Source: Escherichia phage ECCR664. From it: DNA of 64,000 nucleotides. The number at the start of each line of letters is the position of its first letter. Position 1 is the stretch's first letter. Where the stretch lies: sequence record OL631257.1. One strand, 5' to 3'. The notes below the pieces were generated by a model. It was not told the origin of the DNA and did no database searches. It was given only the letters and a program-made list of their open reading frames with translations. Positions 1,531-22,322 of the stretch are shown here, in pieces. The position numbers and the translations under genes are program-made.

Positions 1531-3343
1531 TGGTGTTTAACCCTATGCATGATTTCTTTATTTTTACCGAGATTAAATCCGCGTTCGTTCGGATTTCCAA
1601 GATAACCGCATGTTCTTCTTATAGTGTTCATCTTTTTAGGATCAGTTTCTCCACAAACTGAACAAACAAATCCGTTTTCAGTAGGAGTCATTTCATGAGT
1701 ACTTCCGCATGTAAAACATTTATCCACTGGCATATTAACACCAAAATAATCTAAATGTTGTGCAGCATAATCCCAGACAGCCTCAAGACCCTTTAAGTTA
1801 TTTTTCATATCAGGAAGTTCAACATAAGAAATGTGACCACCTGTCGCAATGAAATGATATGGCGCTTCACGAGAAATCTTTTCAAACGGAGTAATATTTT
1901 CTTCTACTGAAACGTGGAAACTATTAGTGTACCAGCCTTTATCGGTAACATCTTTTACGCTTCCATATTTTTCTGTATCAAGTTTACAGAAGCGATAACA
2001 AAGGTTTTCAGCAGGAGTAGAATATAAACTAAAAGCAAATCCAGTTCTTTCAGTCCACTGTTTAAGATGAGCATTCATTTTAGTTAAAATTTCTTGCCCA
2101 ATATCACGACCAACAAGAATATTCAATTCATGAATACCAATGTATCCTAAAGACACTGAACTTCTACCGTTTTTAAATAACTCAATTATATCGTCGTCAG
2201 GTTTAAGACGAACCCCGAATGCACCTTCTTGGTAAAGAATAGGAGCAACAGTCGCTTTAACTCCTTTTAAGGAACTAATTCTACACATCAAAGCTTCAAA
2301 ACATAAATCCATTCGTTCATTGAACAATTCGATAAATTTCTGTTCATTGAATTGTGTTCCAATATAAGAATCTAATGCGATACGAGGAAGATTCAGTGTT
2401 ACAACACCGAGATTATTACGTCCATCAAGAATTTCATTACCGGTTGAATCTTTCCATACGCTCAAGAAACTACGACAACCCATTGGAGAAACAGGAATAG
2501 ATGAGCCAGTGATAGCTTTATTGTTCTTAGCTGAAATAATATCAGGATACATTCTTTTGCTTGCACACTCTAGAGCGAGTTGCTTAATATCATAGTTCGG
2601 ATCATCTTTATAAAGATTAACACCTTCTTCAACAAACATAACAAGTTTAGGAAAAATAGGAGTTATCCCATCACGTCCAAGACCTTTAATGCGGTTTTTA
2701 AGAATTGCCTTCTGAATCATTCGTTCAGTCCAATCAGTTCCTGTTCCAAATGTTATAGTAACAAAAGGAGTTTGTCCGTTTGAACTAAAAAGAGTATTTA
2801 CTTCATATTCATAAGCTTGGAATGCATCGTATACGTCTTTTTCTGTTTTAGATTGAGCATAATTCAACGCATCAGCGATTTGCCATTTTCTGCATCTTCA
2901 ACATGTTTAGCGTATGTACGTTTAACATAAGGAGAAAGAACTTTATCGACATTTGCAAATGTAGTTCCGCCATACTGATGTGAAGCAACTTGTGCAGTAA
3001 TTTGTGCCATAATTGCAGTAGCAACACCAATCGATTTAGGCGTTTCGATTTGAGCATTGCCTAATTTAAATCCATTCTCAAGCATCCCCTTTAAATCGAC
3101 TAAACAGCAATTAGTAAACGGAAGAGCAGGAGAATAATCAATATCATGCATGTGGATAATTCCACTTTCATGCGCATTCATAATAAAAGACGGGACCATA
3201 TTTTTGGCAATGTGCTTAGACACAATACCAGCCATAAGGTCCCGTTGAGTTGGAAAAACACGAGAATCTTTATTAGCATTCTCGTTCAAAAGATCTTTAT
3301 TAGTTTTATAAATTAATCCTTCAATTTCTTTTTCAATTTTCAT
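1527..3343 (-). CDS. nrdD: anaerobic ribonucleoside-triphosphate reductase NrdD (glycyl radical enzyme), intron-less, one frameshift near 2864-2890
   Basis: ORFs 2864..3343 and 1527..2867 together match T4 NrdD end to end; glycyl-radical motif 'RRTCGYLG' and C-terminal Zn ribbon present; the break falls at a T4 run around 2886-2889. Confidence 0.95.
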
Positions 3344-3344
3344 T

Positions 3345-3812
3345 TTAAACTCTTTCTAAGCTGCTTTTGAATGAAGCTATTAATTGTGTTTTAGTATCAG
3401 ATTCATTATATTCAAATCCTCTTTGAAGCATCTCAGTCATCATTTCCTCTTTACCTAGTCTTGAGAACTCTTTAGTTTTGTCTGGAACAAAATTAGGATG
3501 GATATTATTATCAGAATAATCTTGTTTCAAATAAGCAAGAAGAGCTTCAAGCCATTCGAGGTAATCAACGTTTTGACCTTTAAGACCAGAACGGTTGAAC
3601 TTATGCTTCATTTGACCTTCTGCTGCATTGCACAGGTTACATAGTAAACCACGAACCTTACCAGCTTTTGGCCCGTTTAATTCATGGTCGTGGTCAAGAT
3701 GGTTACCTTGAACATCAGGGTCTAATTCACGGTGGCAAATAGGACACTTACCGTTCTGTGCATCATAAAATTTTTGTTTTTCTTCTTTATATTTTGCGCC
3801 TGATAATAACAT
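3345..3812 (-). CDS. 49: endonuclease VII (Holliday junction resolvase) gp49
   Basis: 155 aa 'MLLSGAKYKEEKQKFYDAQNGKC...HLDHDHELNGPKAGKVRGLLCNLCN' is near-identical to T4 gp49. Confidence 0.95.
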   Translation of the reverse strand: MLLSGAKYKEEKQKFYDAQNGKCPICHRELDPDVQGNHLDHDHELNGPKAGKVRGLLCNLCNAAEGQMKHKFNRSGLKGQNVDYLEWLEALLAYLKQDYSDNNIHPNFVPDKTKEFSRLGKEEMMTEMLQRGFEYNESDTKTQLIASFKSSLERV

Positions 3813-3841
3813 GATAAACCCTTACCTTAAATAGATAAGGG

Positions 3842-3849
3842 TATTTATA
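3842..3849 (-). promoter_or_regulatory. T4-type late promoter (TATAAATA on minus strand) upstream of gene 49
   Basis: Plus strand 'tatttata' is the reverse complement of TATAAATA, about 30 nt upstream of the gene 49 start. Confidence 0.4.
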
Positions 3850-3851
3850 AT

Positions 3852-3944
3852 TTAGTAAACGTTATAAAAGTCACGATGAAAACGTTTATATTGACGAATC
3901 ATTTTCTTAGTAGGACGTGTTACTGAAATAATTGAAGTCCTCAT
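3852..3944 (-). CDS. small basic protein (30 aa), copy 1 of a duplicated ORF
   Basis: 'MRTSIISVTRPTKKMIRQYKRFHRDFYNVY'; paralogous to the peptide encoded at 4455..4590 ('...TVRPTKRQLRKAKRSHRNFYREY'). Confidence 0.3.
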   Translation of the reverse strand: MRTSIISVTRPTKKMIRQYKRFHRDFYNVY

Positions 3945-4039
3945 ATTTGGATTGTTTGGGGCCCCAATCATAATAAATTTCCAGGATTTTTGCCCATTTT
4001 TCTTTCACCATAAAATAATTCAGTTTTCATAATAAACCT

Positions 4040-4453
4040 TTAACTTAAACGTCTTTCTAAATATTCAATGTATTCCGCTGCGGCTTGCATCAGATTACCT
4101 TCATAACCGTCATTATTTTCTTGGGCGGCTAATTTAGCTAAAGCATAAGAAATACGTTCACCTTCGAATTTGCCAAGTTCACTGTCACAAACTACTTGGT
4201 CAATTTCTTCGAGTTCATCTATTGAATGGGATTCCCAGAAGCACCAAAGACAAGTATCACGGTCATAGATGCAAAGTTTCTCACCTGTGTTCAACATCAC
4301 TTCGATAATGCCATGGTCGCCATAACCATCTTCGGTAGTAGTACCAATTACCTTGATGATTGTTCCTTTCTTTAATTCAGGAAACTTGACTTGTAGTTCT
4401 TCATCTTCTTTAACAATCTTGAACCATTTACCGCGAGTTTCAGAAATATTCAT
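4040..4453 (-). CDS. hypothetical protein (about 138 aa, start at 'MNISETRGKWFK')
   Basis: ORF 4040..4570; internal ATG at 4451-4453 is the likely start; sits in the T4 '49/pin' neighbourhood. Confidence 0.5.
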   Translation of the reverse strand: MNISETRGKWFKIVKEDEELQVKFPELKKGTIIKVIGTTTEDGYGDHGIIEVMLNTGEKLCIYDRDTCLWCFWESHSIDELEEIDQVVCDSELGKFEGERISYALAKLAAQENNDGYEGNLMQAAAEYIEYLERRLS

Positions 4454-4454
4454 A

Positions 4455-4590
4455 TCAATATTCTCTATAAAAGTTACGATGAGAACGTTTAGCTTTGCGA
4501 AGCTGACGTTTAGTAGGACGAACTGTAAATGGTTGCCCAGAGAAAAATTCGGATCGGTTTTAATAAGCAAATACCAATCGTGCTTGCCAT
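4455..4590 (-). CDS. small basic protein, copy 2 of duplicated ORF (frameshift suspected)
   Basis: Frame encodes '...GQPFTVRPTKRQLRKAKRSHRNFYREY*'; upstream ATG 'MASTIGICLLKPIRIF' is in another frame across a T-run. Confidence 0.25.
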
Positions 4591-4611
4591 TTTTAATAAA
4601 CGGTACAATAA

Positions 4612-5108
4612 TTTAACTTGCATAATAATCTCTTCCCATCTCCATATCAATTAATTCATTTATTGAAGGTTCATCATAACATGTTTCTTCGTCGTTGTAA
4701 ACTGTTTCGACGTCTGGCTCGACAGTCTCCCATCGAGCAGAATACCACGGTTTAACCCCGGAGTTTATTGAGCTCTTCATAATCAATCCAGGATTCTAGC
4801 CCTGACGGCAGGTCACATTCAATGTTCCACAGAAGCTCTTCAATGGCTTGCAGGCGATTATATTCTTCAACGGTAATGGTAACCATTGGTGCAACCGGTT
4901 CTGCCTTTTTAACCATCATATCGTTCATCAGGACGTAAAGGTCATCACGAACGACAGTGTCGTTCCAACCCCATGATTTGGCTTCGTAAGCTAATGATGA
5001 AGGGAGCACATTTAAAACTTCAATAATAGTTGGAGCATCAGGACCAAGTTCATTGGCACAAACTTCGTATACATCTTGGAAATCTTTAAGATTTAATGAA
5101 TATGTCAT
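4612..5108 (-). CDS. hypothetical protein (possible 3' frameshift; ORF 4752..5108 plus continuation)
   Basis: 118-aa ORF 4752..5108; a further coding frame continues to about 4612. Confidence 0.45.
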
Positions 5109-5367
5109 TTAAAATATTCTCGTAGTTGGTCAAAGCCACCGATCGAAGTTCCATCAGGAGCAAACACTTGAGGCATAGTCAATCCGACTTGTGATTCACG
5201 TCCAAGCTTAACAAGAAGCTCAGCAATTTTCTCATCATCGAACACACCTTTTCTGGCATAACATTAATGAATTCAAATGGCTGTTTCTTAACAGTCAGCA
5301 GTCGTTTCGCATTGTCGCAATAAATGCATTTATGAATAGTAGAGTCGTACCCGTACACTTTAAACAT
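5105..5367 (-). CDS. nrdC: thioredoxin/glutaredoxin NrdC, frameshifted
   Basis: 'MFKVYGYDSTIHKCIYCDNAKRLLTVKKQPFEFINVMPEK' matches T4 NrdC; the C-terminal 'GVFDDEKIAELL...GGFDQLREYFK' is in the -1 frame after a T4 run at 5249-5252. Confidence 0.9.
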
Positions 5368-5773
5368 TATTTTTCCTTTCATCGATTAAATATGCAACGC
5401 CAAATACAATACATGTAATAAAACCTGTGATACAGATAGAAACCAACAACACTGTACCAAAGAACCAAATCAAGTTATCTTTAGTAGTTTGTTTGATATC
5501 CATCTCACGAATTTCTATAGCTATCGTATCACCTTTATTCAGAAGCGTATAAAACGACGGTGATACATGCCTGTCAAAAACTCGACCTTGTTCATCTTTA
5601 TAGACTGCAATAAATTCTAATTTAGAATATTTTCCTGTAGATTGACCTGAAATTAATTCCACTACCTCCACAGGAATTACTTTAGTTTCCATGTAAGTAT
5701 TCTGGCTGTTCCAAATGAACGGAATAATGGCAAAAACTAAAGCTGCGATAAAACAACGAAGGCTATATCTCAT
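5360..5773 (-). CDS. predicted membrane protein (2 TM)
   Basis: 137-aa ORF with hydrophobic segments 'CFIAALVFAIIPFIW' and 'IWFFGTVLLVSICITGFITCIVFGVAYLI'. Confidence 0.5.
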   Translation of the reverse strand: MRYSLRCFIAALVFAIIPFIWNSQNTYMETKVIPVEVVELISGQSTGKYSKLEFIAVYKDEQGRVFDRHVSPSFYTLLNKGDTIAIEIREMDIKQTTKDNLIWFFGTVLLVSICITGFITCIVFGVAYLIDERKNNV

Positions 5774-6078
5774 TATAATGTTCTCTCAAATTTGTGGAAG
5801 CATTTACGGCATTTCAATTTCAAGTTATCAGTGGTCCAGTTAACCAGTTGGACTTGGATAGTTCCACATTCTGGACATGGATGTTTTGCTGCCGATTTGG
5901 CAGCATTTTCACGTCGTTCAACCATTTTCATTATTTCGTTCCATGCCGGAGGAACGAACTCTTCTTCACCGTGGATTTTATCTCGCTGAACAAATTCAAT
6001 CTTTGAACTATCGTCAATAAACTTAACCAAGCCATGATTAGTGCTCATATCAATATCCTCTAGAAGACGTAGTTTCAT
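5773..6078 (-). CDS. zinc-ribbon protein
   Basis: 101 aa with 'CPECG...CRKC' Cys4 pattern. Confidence 0.5.
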   Translation of the reverse strand: MKLRLLEDIDMSTNHGLVKFIDDSSKIEFVQRDKIHGEEEFVPPAWNEIMKMVERRENAAKSAAKHPCPECGTIQVQLVNWTTDNLKLKCRKCFHKFERTL

Positions 6079-7027
6079 TATAACACCTCAATGGCATTTC
6101 GTAAACCATCCGCTTTCGCATTCAGAACTTTTAACGATTTAGTTTGTTCTGCAATCTGGGCTTCGACTTCTTTCAGACGAGATTTGAGGTACTCACGTTC
6201 TTCTCTTAAATTATCAACTTTTTCTACTTTAGGTTCTTTAATAGGCTTAAGTTTATACATATTAGGGTTCTTCAGTTTAATTTGAATTCGAGAACTGAAT
6301 AACATTGAACCGTTATCTTCAGTTTCGCTGAACATTTCAACAACATCCATAGTCTGTAACATCATACGAAGTTTATAAGACAGCGAACGAACGGTTTTGT
6401 TGTGCTTATTAATTTCTTCAGCTTTCATGGTACCGAGATTACGTGAGTAGTAATAAGGAACCTGGATATCAATTGATAATGATGCGTTACCATTACCGGT
6501 TGGTTTGAATACTGCAGTAACCCAATCTTTAACATGAACTTTATTTGTACGACCATCACCGCCAGTGAATAATTTACGAGAATGTTTAAAAAGCATATTC
6601 ACTTGGTTATTGAATTCACAAGCAAATTTATCAGCAAATTTAGTTTCAGGAATTGTAGATAACCAATCAGCTAAATGAGTCTTTTAACATCGTTAATAAT
6701 AGTAAATTCAACCAAATCGGTTTTAGATGTCACAGATTTAATAAAGCTCGGTTTCATAAAGTTTTTAATGTTATCGCGAGCTACAGTAGAAGATAATAAA
6801 CGAGAACGTTTGAACCATTGAAGCAGCGTCCCTAATGAATGAGAATATGCATTTTGAGTATCTTTACAGATATGATTTTCTTGGCCGGTATATGTACCAA
6901 AATCGCGAAGAATACCACTTACTACATCTCGGTGTGGAACATCAAATCCTAATGAACCAGAAGCACGTTGGGCATGAACATTAGCGATAAGACCTGCAAA
7001 ATAATCAATGTAATGTGAACGTGTCAT
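6078..7027 (-). CDS. hypothetical protein (about 316 aa, frameshift about 6600-6690), coiled-coil C-terminus
   Basis: ORFs 6671..7027 and 6078..6602 are adjacent on the minus strand with coding continuity across frames. Confidence 0.45.
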
Positions 7028-14411: not shown

Positions 14412-14713
14412 TTAGATAGATGTAGGCTCTAATTTTATTTTCATGAACTCAGCAAATTGTCTGGCGGTTTTTATGCCTTGTTCATGACATTCAAATGCAT
14501 CATCACAGGGACTATTTTTGTAATGCTTTGCCATATACTTATAGAATTTTTCAGAATTCTCGACATTTTGAATTTCAAACAAAGTATATACGTTTTTAAT
14601 CCCTGATTCCATAAAGTTATCAAAATATGGGTCGATATGTGCAGTACCAACGATAGGAGTTGTTGCTGCAAAAACCCCAGCATCGCTATGACAGCTATCG
14701 CTCTTAAGGCCAT
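14412..14713 (-). CDS. rI: lysis inhibition regulator RI (membrane/periplasmic antiholin-type), frameshifted
   Basis: 'MALRAIAVIAMLGF' then frame change into 'AATTPIVGTAHIDPYFDNFMESGIKNVYTLFEIQN...KIKLEPTSI'; matches T4 RI. Confidence 0.85.
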
Positions 14714-14725
14714 ATAGGCCTCCTG

Positions 14726-14938
14726 TTAATTTTGGCCAGTATTTATTTTTCGCCTTTGGACGGCCTTAACATCTGTGAGGTATTTTTCCAGCTTGCGCTT
14801 GCGTGTATAATCAGCTTTAGAACCAGTTTGACGGATATCCTCATTTAAATGAGAAATAGAATGTCCTAATTCTCTTCGGATTTCATCCAATTGGGTTACA
14901 GTAAGATTACGAAGTTGTCTTTCGTTTAATTGCTGCAT
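14726..14938 (-). CDS. hypothetical protein (70 aa), rI.1 position
   Basis: ORF between rI and tk. Confidence 0.45.
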
Positions 14939-14965
14939 ATATACCTCTTGGTTAGATATTAGTAT

Positions 14966-15545
14966 TTATAACAACCCTGTCAAATCATTCCAATGCTTCC
15001 GGCATAATGACACGTATCTATCAGTATCACCAATTTCAATTTGACTGCCATCTGTAATTGGAAGTCCGTCTTCCGTGACTCTAGCTACCATTGTGGCCTT
15101 TTACCACAATGACAGACACCTTTAAGTTCAACAAGCTTATCGGCAATAGCCATTAATGCTTGAGAACCTTCAAATAGATTACCTTTAAAATCTGTTCGTA
15201 GTCCATATGCCATTACTGGCACATTGTATACGTCAACAATACGACTAAGTTGATACACCTTTTCAGTAGTTAAGAACTGAGCTTCGTCAACAAATACACA
15301 ATGAATATCCTTTGTGCTGCAGCCCATTTATAGAATTCAAAGATGTCCATGTCTTTTGTAATTATATTGGCATCCTGACGAATACCAATACGAGAGACTA
15401 TTTCACCTTTTGAATCACGAGTATCAATAGCCGGTTTAAGAACTAATACACCCATGCCACGTTCTTTATAGTTATGTGCGGCAGTAAGTAATGAAGCAGA
15501 CTTACCAGCATTCATAGCGGCATATGTAAAAATTAAACTAGCCAT
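14966..15545 (-). CDS. tk: thymidine kinase, frameshifted (at least 2 indels)
   Basis: P-loop '[22 protein letters not shown]', 'VFVDEAQFL', C-terminal 'CHCGKK..' Zn motif across ORFs 15270..15545 and 15085..15327 and a third frame. Confidence 0.9.
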
Positions 15546-15554
15546 AAGAGTCCC

Positions 15555-15737
15555 TTATAGTGAATTCACGTAGTCAATGAGTTCTTGTTCTTTCCTGTCA
15601 AATGATTCCATCAATGCGTGATATTCTTCGTCCGTCAAAGGAGCATATTCATCGTACGCATTGGTGGCTGCTTGTTCATCCAATAGGTCATGGATAAGTT
15701 CGAACAGTTTAGCTTTCTCTTCTTTAGTCAATTTCAT
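15555..15737 (-). CDS. hypothetical protein (60 aa)
   Basis: ORF. Confidence 0.4.
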   Translation of the reverse strand: MKLTKEEKAKLFELIHDLLDEQAATNAYDEYAPLTDEEYHALMESFDRKEQELIDYVNSL

Positions 15738-15946
15738 TTAGGTTCACCTTCTTTAACGAAATCTGGGTAAGGGTAAAATCCTGAGTAAAACCCTTCACCT
15801 TTATGATTACTACAACCTTTGTTCGAACAGTAACACCAATAATCAAAATCACAAGCCATTTCGTCATTGCATAAAGCAAAAACTACAGGCCATTCGCATT
15901 TTTCGCATTTAGCGCCTGTAAGAATTTTTGTTTGGCTCATAACCAT
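15734..15946 (-). CDS. small Cys-rich protein (70 aa, 8 Cys)
   Basis: 'CEKCEW...CNDEMACDFDYWCYCSNKGC'. Confidence 0.4.
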   Translation of the reverse strand: MVMSQTKILTGAKCEKCEWPVVFALCNDEMACDFDYWCYCSNKGCSNHKGEGFYSGFYPYPDFVKEGEPK

Positions 15947-16164
15947 GTCACCTTTAAGCAGTATTCTTCTACATGCTGTTTACGACCTTTCTTATCAATA
16001 AAGGTATATTCAACGAATGTTCCAATGTAGTCTTTATCTACATCATGTGGACTATTAATTGGACATTTAGTACGACAAATGCGTTCCCATTGACGAATAA
16101 TTACTGCCTTATTCTTTGGGTCGTATGGATGTGGATAATGTATATTCATAATAATGGTTCCCAA
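15937..16164 (-). CDS. hypothetical protein (75 aa)
   Basis: ORF. Confidence 0.4.
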   Translation of the reverse strand: MGTIIMNIHYPHPYDPKNKAVIIRQWERICRTKCPINSPHDVDKDYIGTFVEYTFIDKKGRKQHVEEYCLKVTWL

Positions 16165-16643
16165 TCAACAATCACAATTTCTAGTTTAGTGGAATACGTA
16201 TCTAAAATCTCTTCGATGATATCCCAGTTTCCGCCACCGATACCAGCACCAATTCTTGGCATATAAATTAAAGGCTTTGTTATCTTATTCTTTCCGAATT
16301 TATTTAATTCTATTATACAATTCATTAAAGCAGAGTACTCAAAATTAGGTCCAGGCTCAAACTGTGTATAAAGATTAAAGCAATAAGCTTTATGGGTCTT
16401 AAAATATTTTTCATAAACCGAATAAGTCCCGAGTTTAGATTCGTCTCCGAATTCGGTTTGAAGTTTATCGGCTTCCAGAATTTTTGGATAAGCCTTTGCT
16501 AATTGACCTGCTACACCAGCGCCCATTGTATGAAAACAATTGCACCCATGAGCAATATTATTACCTTTAGAAAACAGGGCGACAATATCGCCCTTGATAT
16601 AGTTTTTAATCACTTGCTGCAAGTCCTCTAGTATAAGAGTCAA
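16146..16643 (-). CDS. macrodomain-like protein (putative ADP-ribose binding/processing)
   Basis: 'IAHGCNCFHTMGAGVAGQLAKAYP' resembles the macro 'NAANxxLxxGGGVxxAI' motif; 'PRIGAGIGGGNWD' resembles the distal GxGxxG phosphate loop; 165 aa. Confidence 0.5.
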   Translation of the reverse strand: MTLILEDLQQVIKNYIKGDIVALFSKGNNIAHGCNCFHTMGAGVAGQLAKAYPKILEADKLQTEFGDESKLGTYSVYEKYFKTHKAYCFNLYTQFEPGPNFEYSALMNCIIELNKFGKNKITKPLIYMPRIGAGIGGGNWDIIEEILDTYSTKLEIVIVDWEPLL

Positions 16644-16953
16644 CTAGACGGTCCACCATAGAATTGCATGCTGCCTTATCTTTAGGTTCCGCCACCGAGC
16701 ATTCTAATATTTGCCATTTTTTATAGTATCTTTTAATTAAGGTAGACGCCTTGAACCTACTAGACGCCCCATCTTTTTCTCCGTCTTTATACGCATATAA
16801 CAATTTTTGTGAAAAATCTACTTTACACTCTTGACTTTTACCACAATAATCAGACGCCGTTCTGTTTGTATACTCCGTTACATCAGTATATGTAGTATTA
16901 GCAAGAGCGTTAAATGAAACCAAGCCAACTATTAAAGCTAACATTTTGGTCAT
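16606..16953 (-). CDS. predicted periplasmic protein with signal peptide (115 aa)
   Basis: 'MTKMLALIVGLVSFNALA' signal-like N-terminus. Confidence 0.45.
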   Translation of the reverse strand: MTKMLALIVGLVSFNALANTTYTDVTEYTNRTASDYCGKSQECKVDFSQKLLYAYKDGEKDGASSRFKASTLIKRYYKKWQILECSVAEPKDKAACNSMVDRLVDSYTRGLAASD

Positions 16954-17492
16954 TCTTTTATTTCCAGTAGTTTATTTGATTTAAGGTAATTAGCCTTTTC
17001 TAGGACTTCAGAAGCATATTTACTTCCAGCACTTGTCTTCCATCCCGCATTATATGAGGATATAGCTTTTCTTATATCCCCGTTATGTATATTTAACCAA
17101 TAAGAAAATTCGATATAAGCCCATCTGGCTGAATTAGACCGCTTAGATAGCATTTTCTTAATTTGGGCATCAGTCATATTATAACCAAGCTGGTTAATTC
17201 TTGCCCTCATTGTTGGTAGATAGTTTTGGAACATTCCATACGCATGGTGACCTTTCTTATCTTTAAGATTAATACCTGCGGATGATTCTTGCCATAGTAT
17301 TGCGGCCATTATGTATCCAAGTCCTTTCTTATGCATATTTTCATGCGTTTTAAATTTTCCGTCCTTAGAAAACTGTTCCCCAAACTGATAAGCATAATTC
17401 AAGTTATCGAGTTGGACATTACTAAAAGTATGCTCGGAGCTATGTGCTGATAACGAAAGAGCAAATAGACCAGCGAGTAGTGCTTTTCTCAT
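16950..17492 (-). CDS. secreted lytic transglycosylase-like protein (SLT-like)
   Basis: Signal peptide 'MRKALLAGLFALSLSA'; 'WQESSAG...YGMFQ' resembles the SLT catalytic 'ES...GLMQ' motif. Confidence 0.45.
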   Translation of the reverse strand: MRKALLAGLFALSLSAHSSEHTFSNVQLDNLNYAYQFGEQFSKDGKFKTHENMHKKGLGYIMAAILWQESSAGINLKDKKGHHAYGMFQNYLPTMRARINQLGYNMTDAQIKKMLSKRSNSARWAYIEFSYWLNIHNGDIRKAISSYNAGWKTSAGSKYASEVLEKANYLKSNKLLEIKE

Positions 17493-17500
17493 GTTTACCT

Positions 17501-17957
17501 CTAGATTTTAATCACTGCTTTAGAAGCTTTTCCTGGTAGTCGTTTACTGTTAATAATAGCCATTCTGCATTGAAGAGTCTTCATTTTGAATGCTGGATTT
17601 TCGCGACAGACTGTAAGTCCTAACCAAAGATTTCCGTCAGTTATTTCTAAACGGCCTGGGCGATATTCGACACCTTCGACAAAATCTTCATCAACATCTG
17701 GACGTGCCGGCATTGATAAAAATTCTGCAACTTCTTTAACATGATTTTTACTTTATGAAATAATTCAAAACGTAATTCTCATCTATTTCTCTCTGGATGG
17801 CACGATCTAAGAGATGTTGAGAATACTTGATATGAAAGCCTGGTAGTCCAAGAGACTTTGCAGCATCTTTTATACCGGCATTTATTTTGCGGAACTCCGT
17901 TTCAAAGATTCGACGGAGTTTATTACGGCGGATAAAAACGTCAGAATTGATAGTCAT
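17501..17957 (-). CDS. regB: endoribonuclease RegB, frameshifted
   Basis: ORFs 17748..17957 ('MTINSDVFIRRNKLRR...HLLDRAIQREIDE') and 17501..17713 ('...GVEYRPGRLEITDGNLW...CRMAIINSKRLPGKASKAVIK') match T4 RegB. Confidence 0.85.
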
Positions 17958-17986
17958 TTTTGATTTCTCCTCTAGTTGACAGGTCT

Positions 17987-18015
17987 ATAGTAACACATCT
18001 AGAGGAGAAGTAAAC
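17987..18015 (-). promoter_or_regulatory. T4-type early promoter
   Basis: Minus strand GTTTAC, 17 nt, TACTAT upstream of regB. Confidence 0.5.
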
Positions 18016-18019
18016 TACT

Positions 18020-18235
18020 TTATTGATAAAATGGAGTTAAAGCCCAAGATTCTTTAGATACCATATTGGCGAAATGCCTCATCTCTTCGATTTGGCGACG
18101 ACGCTGGTCAGCATAGTCTTCTTCACCTTCTTCCTTACAATCTTCAAGGTCTTCTTCAAGATACTTTAAGTATTCACTACAAATTTTGTTGACCTTTTCT
18201 TGAAAGTCCAATAACCCGGTAATAGTAGAAGCCAT
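18020..18235 (-). CDS. hypothetical protein (71 aa, acidic)
   Basis: ORF. Confidence 0.4.
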   Translation of the reverse strand: MASTITGLLDFQEKVNKICSEYLKYLEEDLEDCKEEGEEDYADQRRRQIEEMRHFANMVSKESWALTPFYQ

Positions 18236-18501
18236 TAGTATTTTTCCTCAGGTCGAAATACTGCACGACATGCCCACATACTGGCTTCTTTTAGATGTTG
18301 CTTAGCATACTTAAGAGCCTGCACTGCATCCATATCTTCTTTGGTTTGTTGCTCTGATTCATTTTCTTTCAAGATATATGCTTCTTCAATCAGAGCATCA
18401 AACATCAATCCAAGACGGACTTCGGCGTCTTTAATAGCGTTCACTTTACTGATTTTATCATCGGTATGCGGCTTGTAGCCTTTGATGTCTTCAATCGACA
18501 T
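18235..18501 (-). CDS. hypothetical protein (about 88 aa; start at 'MSIEDIKG')
   Basis: ORF 18235..18669, probable internal start overlapping the upstream stop. Confidence 0.4.
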   Translation of the reverse strand: MSIEDIKGYKPHTDDKISKVNAIKDAEVRLGLMFDALIEEAYILKENESEQQTKEDMDAVQALKYAKQHLKEASMWACRAVFRPEEKY

Positions 18502-18715
18502 AAGGAATTTCCTCATCGGTGGCAAGGTCATATTCGACCAATTGGATAGGCTCATTAATACCATATCCACGTACAGTGATATCGGTTGACGGATATTTTC
18601 CAGTAATATCACCCGTTCTAAATGCTTCAATGAATGATTGCTCGCCTGAGCAACTAAACCAGGCGGCAAAACATTTTAAAACATCTTCAGACCCTTCTAT
18701 AATCAATTTAGCCAT
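18491..18715 (-). CDS. hypothetical protein (74 aa)
   Basis: ORF. Confidence 0.4.
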   Translation of the reverse strand: MAKLIIEGSEDVLKCFAAWFSCSGEQSFIEAFRTGDITGKYPSTDITVRGYGINEPIQLVEYDLATDEEIPYVD

Positions 18716-19077
18716 TATAAACTCTCAGTAAAGGTACGAGCGATAACGTCGCGCTGCTGTTCCGGAGTCAGAGAGTTAAAGCGAACTGCATAACCGGATA
18801 CACGAATGGTCAGCTGTGGATATTTTTCCGGATGCTTAACTGCATCTTCCAGAGTTTCACGACGCAGAACGTTAACGTTCAGGTGCTGACCACCTTCAAT
18901 TTTAACTTTAGGTTGATGTTCAATTTCAATTTCACGAGCATTCAAACCGTAGAAAATTTCTGGGTCTACAATAGCGTCTTCTTTAAAAGTCTTAGAGACA
19001 ATAATCCGGGCTTGAGTACCGTCTTCAAAATAAATAGTGCCTTTATGTTCACCTTCAAGAATTTGATATGCTTTCAT
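18715..19077 (-). CDS. grcA: autonomous glycyl radical cofactor GrcA/YfiD-like protein
   Basis: C-terminus '[55 protein letters not shown]' carries the glycyl-radical motif RVSGY and closely resembles E. coli GrcA. Confidence 0.85.
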
Positions 19078-19100
19078 ATAACCTCAATTAGAAAATAAAT

Positions 19101-19391
19101 TTATCCAAGATTTTCTTTAATCAAAAATGGGTCGGAATTAAACGCCATTAAACTTTGAGTGATTAATCCCTTAAATGGCCCATCAATAAATTCCATTTTG
19201 AAATGCGGAATACTAGTCATCAACCGTGCATTAGGAGCAGTACAAAGAACCTGCTGACCTGCGAACGGACCTTTAGTCAAACGATATCGTTTAGGTTTAA
19301 AATGGTAGATCTCGTAATTTTCTACAAGAGCCCTTTTATTGCATACTGGACTGTTATAACAATACTCAAAAACTTCAATAGTGGTCATCAT
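19101..19391 (-). CDS. hypothetical protein (96 aa)
   Basis: ORF. Confidence 0.45.
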   Translation of the reverse strand: MMTTIEVFEYCYNSPVCNKRALVENYEIYHFKPKRYRLTKGPFAGQQVLCTAPNARLMTSIPHFKMEFIDGPFKGLITQSLMAFNSDPFLIKENLG

Positions 19392-19401
19392 TGCATTCCA
19401 A

Positions 19402-19925
19402 TCACAAAAATTGAGGACGAGCAGTACCGCCTATGCAATATTTGCTTTTGCAGCAGTGCTGTACTGATTTAATATGGACATTGTAAATCTTATCCATATC
19501 AGGAGCTTTAATAGGCTCGTCAATTATGTATAGAATACGAGAAAGCGTTAATCCACGGAATTTAGAACCTTCATTGCCAATAAAACTACGGACAGAATCA
19601 GTAAATAAACGGAATCGAATATCATCGCTAGAATAACGAGAAAATTCTTTTTAATGTTGCCAGCAGAAATTTTAGCATAAGCTGAAGTATTAGAAAGAAC
19701 AATAACTGTTCCATCGTCGTGCAGCCAATTAGCAGCAAAATTAGTTACTGCAGTGGATTTACCTGATTGTCTGCCACCGTCTAAACGAAGTGTACAGTAC
19801 TGCTTGAGTATGTCTTCAAATGGTGGGACATAACCATTCTTACAAATTTCTTCTACTCTAGCATCAGAATGGTGTGTAAAAGCATTCATCAGGGATAGAT
19901 AAGGTCCAGTTAAAAATGTTTTCAT
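19402..19925 (-). CDS. P-loop NTPase-like protein (Walker A 'GGRQSGKST'), frameshifted
   Basis: ORF 19548..19973 plus a continuing frame ending at 19402. Confidence 0.4.
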
Positions 19926-21863: not shown

Positions 21864-22322
21864 TTATAGGAGGGTAGTGAGCACCTTATATAATGATTTG
21901 CCCATTACATATTCCCATTGAGAAGGTTTAATTAAAGCGAATGCATCAAATTCAGGAATCTGACGTCCGTCTGGGAATGTATGATAGGAATTACAAACAC
22001 TGTTTCTGAATTGCTCGTGCTCTACAGGGATGGTATATAGGAACAGATGAATATTCTTATTGTCTGAGTAATGATGTTCACCTAGGTCTTTCAGGAAGGC
22101 AGGGTCATATTGTGTAAACCCAGTTTCTTCTTCGCATTCACGAATAGCGGCTTCAATAGGAGATTCGCCAGGTTCGACACGGCCTTTAGGAATATCCCAC
22201 CGATGAGCTAAAGAACCTTTAGGACGAGAACCAGTTACACGTCCCATGAATAATTCTTTATCTTTTGTCATGAAGATAATACCGGCTGATAGTTCTTTCA
22301 CTTTATTTTTCTTACTCATCAT
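21864..22322 (-). CDS. nudE: Nudix hydrolase NudE
   Basis: Nudix box 'GRVEPGESPIEAAIRECEEETG'. Confidence 0.9.
   Translation of the reverse strand: MMSKKNKVKELSAGIIFMTKDKELFMGRVTGSRPKGSLAHRWDIPKGRVEPGESPIEAAIRECEEETGFTQYDPAFLKDLGEHHYSDNKNIHLFLYTIPVEHEQFRNSVCNSYHTFPDGRQIPEFDAFALIKPSQWEYVMGKSLYKVLTTLL

Follow-up and report, generated by a model that had tools for sequence, protein, structure and literature searches.

The Mosigvirus orthologue of T4 tk.4 encodes a lysine-free macrodomain that probably acts against DarTG2-type defences

What is the protein with two glycine-rich loops that is encoded in the tk-regB stretch of Escherichia phage ECCR664, and on which form of ADP-ribose would it act? 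We analyzed a window of 64,000 nucleotides of this genome (sequence record OL631257.1), in which a first-pass annotation had described a 165-aa ORF (16146..16643, minus strand, read from a TTG codon) as a macrodomain-like protein that could reverse the ADP-ribosylation of DNA or protein, or degrade ADP-ribose-derived defence signals. The ORF is present and carries the two motifs that had been quoted, IAHGCNCFHTMGAGVAGQLAKAYP and PRIGAGIGGGNWD, exactly. The window belongs to the genome of a Mosigvirus (T4-like), whose identity to Escherichia phage vB_EcoM-172859UKE1 reaches 99.2% along 2.1 kb, and the gene order tk.3 - tk.4 - vs - vs.1 - regB is identical in the window, in MZ234025 and in T4. 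Its sequence identifies the gene as the orthologue, in this Mosigvirus, of T4 tk.4, a name that the first-pass annotation did not give it. The gene and its surroundings comprise the following features:

16146..16613, minus strand: tk.4/adfM orthologue, single-domain macrodomain protein of 155 aa, with a GTG start (placed by alignment to the ATG of T4 tk.4) and a TAA stop
16614..16643, minus strand: stretch that the TTG at 16643 adds to the 5' end of the mechanical ORF, probably untranslated, as judged from the aligned DNA of the window, T4 and MZ234025
Within 16614..16643, minus strand: Shine-Dalgarno-like sequence GAGGA, which precedes the GTG at 16613 by 10-11 nt and lies inside the 3' end of vs
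16606..16953, minus strand: vs, the upstream neighbour, valyl-tRNA synthetase modifier of 115 aa
15937..16164, minus strand: tk.3, the downstream neighbour, DUF7202 (Pfam, 2e-38), whose ORF start overlaps the stop of tk.4

Read from the TTG, the ORF shares 38 nt with vs, its upstream neighbor. When the DNA of the window was aligned with that of T4 and MZ234025, the GTG at 16613 fell base for base on the codon annotated as the ATG start of T4 tk.4, and a GAGGA is conserved upstream of it. The tblastn alignments of homologues likewise begin only at residue 11 of the 165-aa ORF. Based on the T4 alignment and on the homologue alignments, we took the GTG at 16613 as the start and dropped the TTG at 16643. 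The ORF and the motifs of the first-pass annotation were thus retained but its start codon was not, and the gene most likely spans 16146..16613 and would encode 155 aa, as does T4 tk.4. In MZ234025.1, the closest relative in GenBank, the macro gene (163276-163656, equivalent to 16146-16526 of the window) is annotated from an internal ATG (Met30), which yields a product of 126 aa. This shorter product would not contain strands 1-2 and the conserved H-G-C-N-C motif, suggesting that the annotated start is probably wrong. We also observed that the stop of vs overlaps the start of tk.4 (GTGATTAA), which suggests that these two genes might be translationally coupled. The vs gene (16606-16953) presented no Pfam match; according to the HIDEN-SEQ preprint, no other T4 gene was depleted as strongly in minimal medium (10.1101/2025.11.20.689424).

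Searches for other elements around the gene returned little. Two antisense ORFs (15973-16266 and 16503-16631) yielded no convincing match to a PHROG family (one at E 0.04), and no Rfam family was matched between 15000 and 18000. A perfect 8-bp GC-rich hairpin, AGGGCGAT-ATT-GTCGCCCT, followed by GTTTTCT, is located within the macro gene, in the 5' part of its coding sequence (16576-16594, minus strand). It may be without meaning, as the number of terminator-like sites in the scanned region is near chance (5 against 3.5 expected). Promoter-like sites numbered 15 against 18 expected in the scan of 14500-19500.

Relative to the 99%-identical MZ234025, the window is missing 13 bases at 10 sites and contains two extra bases between 11234 and 18022, nearly all of them in homopolymer runs (e.g., at 15099, 15311, 17745, 17767, 14379, 14670 and 13260). 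As a result of these indels, tk appears as three ORFs (14966-15545) and regB as two (17501-17957); several neighboring genes are affected as well. The broken tk and regB look like the result of homopolymer sequencing error rather than real pseudogenes. Unlike these two neighbors, the macro gene presents no indel relative to its closest relative.

We then asked whether the product is indeed a macrodomain. The Macro family profile of Pfam (PF01661) matched the protein with 27.9 bits (gathering cut-off of 22; E 2.5e-6) over profile positions 2-117 of 118. The protein also matched PHROG 335 ('phosphatase'; E 4.7e-66) and, among PDB sequences, BT1257 (3e-11, the best match), Poa1p (1e-8), SCO6735, TARG1 and DarG. 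The structure predicted with AlphaFold2 from 61 homologues presents high confidence (pLDDT of 95.6 and pTM of 0.91) and contains six strands and five helices in the order beta-alpha-beta-alpha-alpha-beta-beta-alpha-beta-alpha-beta. In its strands and helices and in its structural matches, the model fits the three-layer alpha/beta/alpha topology of macrodomains with a central mixed sheet. Its nearest solved structures according to Foldseek are TARG1 (E 1e-10; ADP-ribose-bound), Poa1p, BT1257 and the macrodomains of DarG, all with a probability of 1.0, followed by viral macrodomains. A total of 143 PDB structures were matched at E <= 0.001, and the best 50 of these 143 are all macrodomains or OSH55-series designed hydrolases that cluster with them. 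The curated profile and the predicted fold agree that the protein is a genuine macrodomain, as the first-pass annotation had suspected. Neither of the two results that it had named as refuting, the lack of a Macro match and a fold of another topology, was obtained.

The predicted ADP-ribose site consists of three elements:

16521..16550, minus strand: loop 1 of the ADP-ribose site, H22-G-C-N25-C-F-H-T-M-G31 (the first ten residues of H22-G-C-N25-C-F-H-T-M-G31-A-G33)
16362..16376, minus strand: N80-L-Y-T-Q84 motif, placed with MAFFT and with hhalign to DarG, TARG1 and BT1257
16224..16259, minus strand: loop 2 (diphosphate-binding), P119-R-I-G-A-G-I-G-G-G-N-W130

With its two glycine-rich loops and the asparagine of loop 1, whose role has been described in other macrodomains (PMC13309987; PMC9411070), the protein is predicted to bind ADP-ribose. 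This asparagine (N25) corresponds to N22 of DarG, N23 of the AdfM of PhiKZ and N27 of SCO6735. Among 61 homologues from phages and metagenomes, H22, C24, N25 and C26 vary little or not at all. Within loop 2, whose counterpart in BT1257 and SCO6735 is the PRIGCGLAGGxW motif, P119, G122 and G124 do not vary across these 61 homologues and 80 cellular ones, and G128 and W130 hardly do. The patterns H22-G-C-N25-x5-G31-A-G33 and P119-x-I-G-x-G-x-G-G-G-x-W130 are thereby conserved completely or almost completely in both groups; the 80 cellular loci were retrieved with loop-1 and loop-2 patterns, however, and the conservation of H22-C26 and of loop 2 among them is partly by construction. The retrieval patterns did not include the motif of Gln84, and this residue is invariant in 61 of the 61 phage and metagenome homologues and in 80 of the 80 cellular homologues, as is N25.

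Gln84 occupies the site of the catalytic lysine of other macrodomains. Both MAFFT and hhalign placed it opposite K84 of TARG1 (L-I-T-K) and K80 of DarG (F-P-T-K), the sequences of TARG1 and of M. tuberculosis DarG having been checked against their PDB chains before alignment. Human TARG1 (OARD1) is the best Foldseek match and a minimal macrodomain of the same size, and it has been shown to cleave thymidine-linked ADP-ribose as well (PMC9411070). Nevertheless, its catalytic dyad K84/D125 is replaced by Q84/G126 in the window protein, D125 being aligned opposite G126 by both programs. When the family was aligned to BT1257 with hhalign, its NLYTQ landed on NMIGQ. Gln84 is likely equivalent to Q85 of SCO6735, based on this alignment of BT1257 and on the structure-based alignment of PMC9411070, our direct comparison with the SCO6735 chain (5e3b) covering loop 2 only.

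The closest mechanistic parallels appear to be SCO6735 of Streptomyces coelicolor and BT1257, which are 54% identical to each other (PMC9411070). These are free-standing ALC1-like macrodomains that remove thymidine-linked ADP-ribose, although their identity to the window protein is only about 30%. Like the window protein, they consist of a single domain devoid of the catalytic lysine, with a glutamine at the catalytic position supported by the asparagine of loop 1, and they share the loop 2 pattern PRIG-x-G-x-x-GG-x-W. SCO6735 cleaves the thymidine-ADP-ribose made by DarT faster than DarG does and rescues E. coli from DarT; its activity is abolished by Q85A and mostly removed by N27S (PMC9411070). 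The missing lysine is therefore no sign of inactivity, since SCO6735 is active with Gln85 at that position, and we set aside the idea that the window protein is an inactive binder. One feature of these enzymes is not shared: their 'mobile loop' is 5-6 residues longer (a 6-residue insertion in BT1257 by hhalign), whereas the window protein has a short loop after the glutamine, with 9 residues to a conserved Tyr as in DarG and TARG1. In addition, Lys34 of SCO6735 is Ala32 in the window protein.

The most direct indication of function comes from T4. Tk.4 of T4 (AdfM, NP_049723; NC_000866 60922-61389) and the window protein align over 155 of 155 residues without gaps and with 85% identity, and the two genes share the same start and the same flanks, tk.3 and vs. 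The phages belong to different genera (Tequatrovirus and Mosigvirus, respectively) and 24 residues differ, including K127 of loop 2 in T4, which is G127 in the window, but the window protein keeps all the residues that are invariant in the family. The gene is already annotated: T4 tk.4 appears in NC_000866 as 'phosphatase; contains A1pp phosphatase motif', and many related records label the gene 'macro domain protein', 'phosphatase' or 'ADP-ribose binding module'. It has also been recently characterized by genetics in T4, and our finding is in this respect already known.

DarTG2 is a defence system that ADP-ribosylates thymidines in DNA. T4 lacking both adfA and adfN stays resistant to DarTG2 (PMC11825919), which implies a further factor. 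When a T4 transposon library was grown on a host expressing DarTG2 (HIDEN-SEQ), tk.4 was the single significant hit, and a clean tk.4 knock-out sensitized T4 to DarTG2, as reported in a 2025 preprint (10.1101/2025.11.20.689424). The preprint introduces the name adfM (anti-DarT factor Macrodomain) and proposes that the protein removes ADP-ribose from DNA, based on predicted structural similarity to DarG; we found neither a complementation nor an active-site mutant in it. Resistance to DarTG2 was shown for T4 only, by this screen and this knock-out, and we found no enzyme assay of T4 Tk.4 in the literature consulted. The proposal of the first-pass annotation that the protein acts on ADP-ribosylated DNA thus finds direct genetic support in an orthologue that is 85% identical, while nothing in our analysis or in the literature consulted points to a role of the Tk.4 clade in the degradation of ADP-ribose-derived signals. 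As a consistency check, we searched phage T5, which is sensitive to DarTG2 according to the preprint (10.1101/2025.11.20.689424): no Tk.4 homologue was detected by tblastn or with the family HMM in bases 1-86000 of its genome, which extend into the region from the tail-fibre gene (81.9 kb) onward. This is consistent with an anti-DarTG2 role.

Taken with the analogy to T4 and SCO6735, these sequence comparisons suggest that the free-standing macrodomain is probably an orphan antitoxin against DarTG2-type defences. The protein would be made from an early/middle region of the genome, as is probably the case for its T4 counterpart. Host DarT2 would place ADP-ribose on N3 of thymidines in single-stranded phage DNA, which would block replication. 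In the cleft that separates its two glycine-rich loops, the macrodomain would then hold the ADP-ribose and hydrolyse the thymine-ribose bond, releasing free ADP-ribose and restoring the DNA. In the absence of the catalytic lysine, the chemistry would probably be of the SCO6735 type rather than of the DarG/TARG1 type, with Gln84, held by Asn25, positioning the distal ribose for a water-mediated cleavage. Several features count against an antitoxin: the protein has neither the lysine nor the C-terminal DarT-binding domain of DarG, the place of the basic residue in the G-K-G loop is taken by Ala32 (by Ser in T4), and it lacks the long 'mobile loop' that is credited with DNA binding in SCO6735.

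We also considered whether the gene could be a captured or co-opted DarG antitoxin. The DarG proteins of M. tuberculosis and T. aquaticus have the same fold (Foldseek E of 4e-8 to 1e-7; TM of about 0.75) and the same asparagine in loop 1, and the biological task of DarG and of PhiKZ gp104, undoing the modification made by DarT2, would be alike. However, both carry F-P-T-K with the catalytic lysine where the window protein has N-L-Y-T-Q, and DarG proteins are two-domain proteins of about 330-400 aa that include a C-terminal DarT-binding domain, whereas the window protein has a single domain of 155 aa and no adjacent darT. The NCBIfam profile of DarG (NF048014) scored 29.5 bits against a cut-off of 250, and it was matched at positions 4-146 of 338 only. 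Capture of a DarG antitoxin was rejected given the missing lysine and C-terminal domain, this sub-threshold score and the neighbors tk.3 and vs. The cellular homologues agree with this conclusion. These 80 genes, which come from Rhodobacterales, Verrucomicrobia, Hymenobacter, Desulfobacterales and further groups, mostly encode stand-alone proteins (median length of about 154 aa). No DarT2 homologue was detected within up to 4 kb on each side of these 80 genes (tblastn, E <= 1, using a single DarT2 query of moderate sensitivity), and no neighboring gene family is common to more than 12 of the 80 loci. With free-standing cellular homologues, no DarT2 nearby and no widely shared neighbor, the Tk.4 clade does not look like a captured DarG antitoxin.

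PhiKZ gp104 has itself been shown to remove DarT2-made ADP-ribose from an oligonucleotide in vitro (Cell Reports 2026; PMC13309987). The name AdfM was given independently to two macrodomains that are not orthologous: gp104, which is of the DarG type (PMC13309987), and T4 Tk.4, which is of the Gln type (10.1101/2025.11.20.689424). We further observed that PHROG 335 lumps together PhiKZ gp104, T4 Tk.4 and Adpp.

A different substrate would be ADP-ribose-1''-phosphate. The protein could act mainly as a phosphatase on this molecule, as do Poa1p and Adpp, either alone or beside an activity on DNA, and would turn ADPR-1''P, whether it comes from RNA repair or from RES-type NADases (aRES), into ADP-ribose. 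Yeast Poa1p, an ADP-ribose-1''-phosphate phosphatase, is a top fold match (TM 0.80), ranks among the nearest relatives of known function by sequence and shares the H-x-C-N-C motif, but pairwise HMMER alignment places a Ser opposite Gln84. The annotation of T4 tk.4 as a phosphatase points the same way, and so does Adpp of Vibrio phage Gary, a component of the NARP1-AP pathway that aligns with the window protein at 35% identity (E 8e-24), belongs to PHROG 335 and has in common H-x-CNC, D49, KLG, N-x-Y-x-Q and loop 2, with H22, N25 and Q84 all kept. This enzyme dephosphorylates ADPR-1''-phosphate in vitro, after which NARP1 rebuilds NAD+ despite the aRES defence (10.64898/2026.01.28.702374, a 2026 preprint). 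Since Gary Adpp is a proven phosphatase with the same active-site residues, the sequence by itself does not fix the substrate. Relatives of Tk.4 also occur inside Adps-Namat operons of Vibrio and Acinetobacter phages. Against this explanation, Adpp is encoded in an Adps-Adpp-Namat operon and contains an insertion of 7-8 residues after the glutamine that is absent from the window protein, and the macro gene is flanked by tk.3 and vs, with neither Adps nor Namat beside it. With no adjacent NAD+ pathway, the ADP-ribose product would not be rebuilt into NAD+ by neighboring genes, making the benefit doubtful, although this argument concerns the neighborhood only. Moreover, sensitivity to DarTG2 is the only phenotype reported for the T4 orthologue. 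We consider it unlikely that phosphatase activity is the main function. The relatives of Tk.4 in operons with PRPP-synthetase-like and NAMPT-like genes (NARP1) show start/stop overlaps and were observed in two unrelated groups, Thalassavirus of Vibrio and Saclayvirus of Acinetobacter, and an RNA ligase gene lies upstream of the operon in Thalassa and D22. No PRPP-synthetase-like or NAMPT-like gene was found in the tk-regB stretch of the window. The operons are located as follows, in coordinates of the extracted loci:

3129-6188 of locus L086: NARP1 operon of Vibrio phage Thalassa
940-4474 of locus L085: NARP1 operon of Acinetobacter phage D22
[quoted passage not shown]

Two further explanations keep the link to ADP-ribosylation but not the cleavage of thymidine-linked ADP-ribose. 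The protein might neutralize DarT2 without catalysis, by binding the toxin as the C-terminal domain of DarG or AdfB does, or by masking ADP-ribosylated DNA. DarT is inhibited in vitro even by SCO6735 that is devoid of catalytic activity (Q85A; PMC9411070), the phage proteins AdfA and AdfB work by binding DarT, and the catalytic lysine of DarG is missing here. Yet N25, Q84 and both glycine-rich loops are invariant across phage homologues and across cellular homologues that have no DarT nearby, which fits an enzyme rather than a toxin-specific binder, and the protein possesses no DarG-like C-terminal domain; we regard this mode of action as very improbable. Lowest of all in our estimate is the reversal or editing of protein or RNA ADP-ribosylation, whether introduced by the phage enzymes Alt, ModA and ModB or by host toxins, and including uracil-linked ADP-ribose on RNA. 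The T4 transferases (Alt, ModA and ModB) modify arginine, a linkage that TARG1-class enzymes are not known to cleave, and no phenotype or assay supports such a role for Tk.4. TARG1-class enzymes, including SCO6735, do cleave Glu/Asp-linked ADP-ribose from protein and uracil-linked ADP-ribose from RNA (PMC9411070; PMC13036486), but T-even phages are still sensitive to CmdTAC, an mRNA ADP-ribosyltransferase system (PMC11618068).

Although we favor an orphan antitoxin against DarTG2-type defences, a broader activity can be tentatively envisaged. The Tk.4 clade may conceivably, if with rather low probability, consist of dual-purpose lysine-free macrodomains in which a single Asn25/Gln84 site removes ADP-ribose from thymidine and dephosphorylates ADPR-1''-phosphate.

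The first-pass annotation had also connected the gene to the Nudix hydrolase NudE, about 5 kb away. A Nudix gene is indeed present at 21864..22322 (Pfam NUDIX, 4.9e-16), some 5.2 kb from the macro gene. ADP-ribose freed by the macrodomain could in principle serve as a substrate of NudE, which cleaves ADP-ribose in T4. However, only this distance links the two genes and many unrelated ORFs lie between them (17 annotated CDS in the 99%-identical MZ234025), and a functional operon finds no support.

Among 50,697 phage records, about 2,830 contain a relative of the gene, and these are almost exclusively large myoviruses. Many other T4-like phages, isolated on E. coli, Salmonella, Citrobacter and Yersinia (PP01, Kha5h and others), possess a vs-adjacent copy that is just 57-58% identical. 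Compared to the 85% identity between Mosigvirus and T4, this suggests that alleles have been exchanged among T-even phages at the vs-adjacent locus.

Based on these sequence comparisons, we suggest that the gene be labeled tk.4/adfM, macrodomain, probable DNA ADP-ribosylglycohydrolase, with a GTG start. AdfM of the T4 type does not carry the lysine of DarG and resembles both SCO6735 and Adpp, so that the anti-DarTG2 mechanism is best regarded as provisional. If the protein were dual-purpose, it would counter both DarTG2 and RES-type NADases with a substrate loop shorter than those of SCO6735 and Adpp, and it would represent a general 'ADP-ribose eraser' that large phages recruited not from DarG antitoxins but from macrodomains with housekeeping roles in bacteria. 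With a relative present in about 2,800 of the 50,697 phage records, the answer regarding the substrate would be widely applicable.
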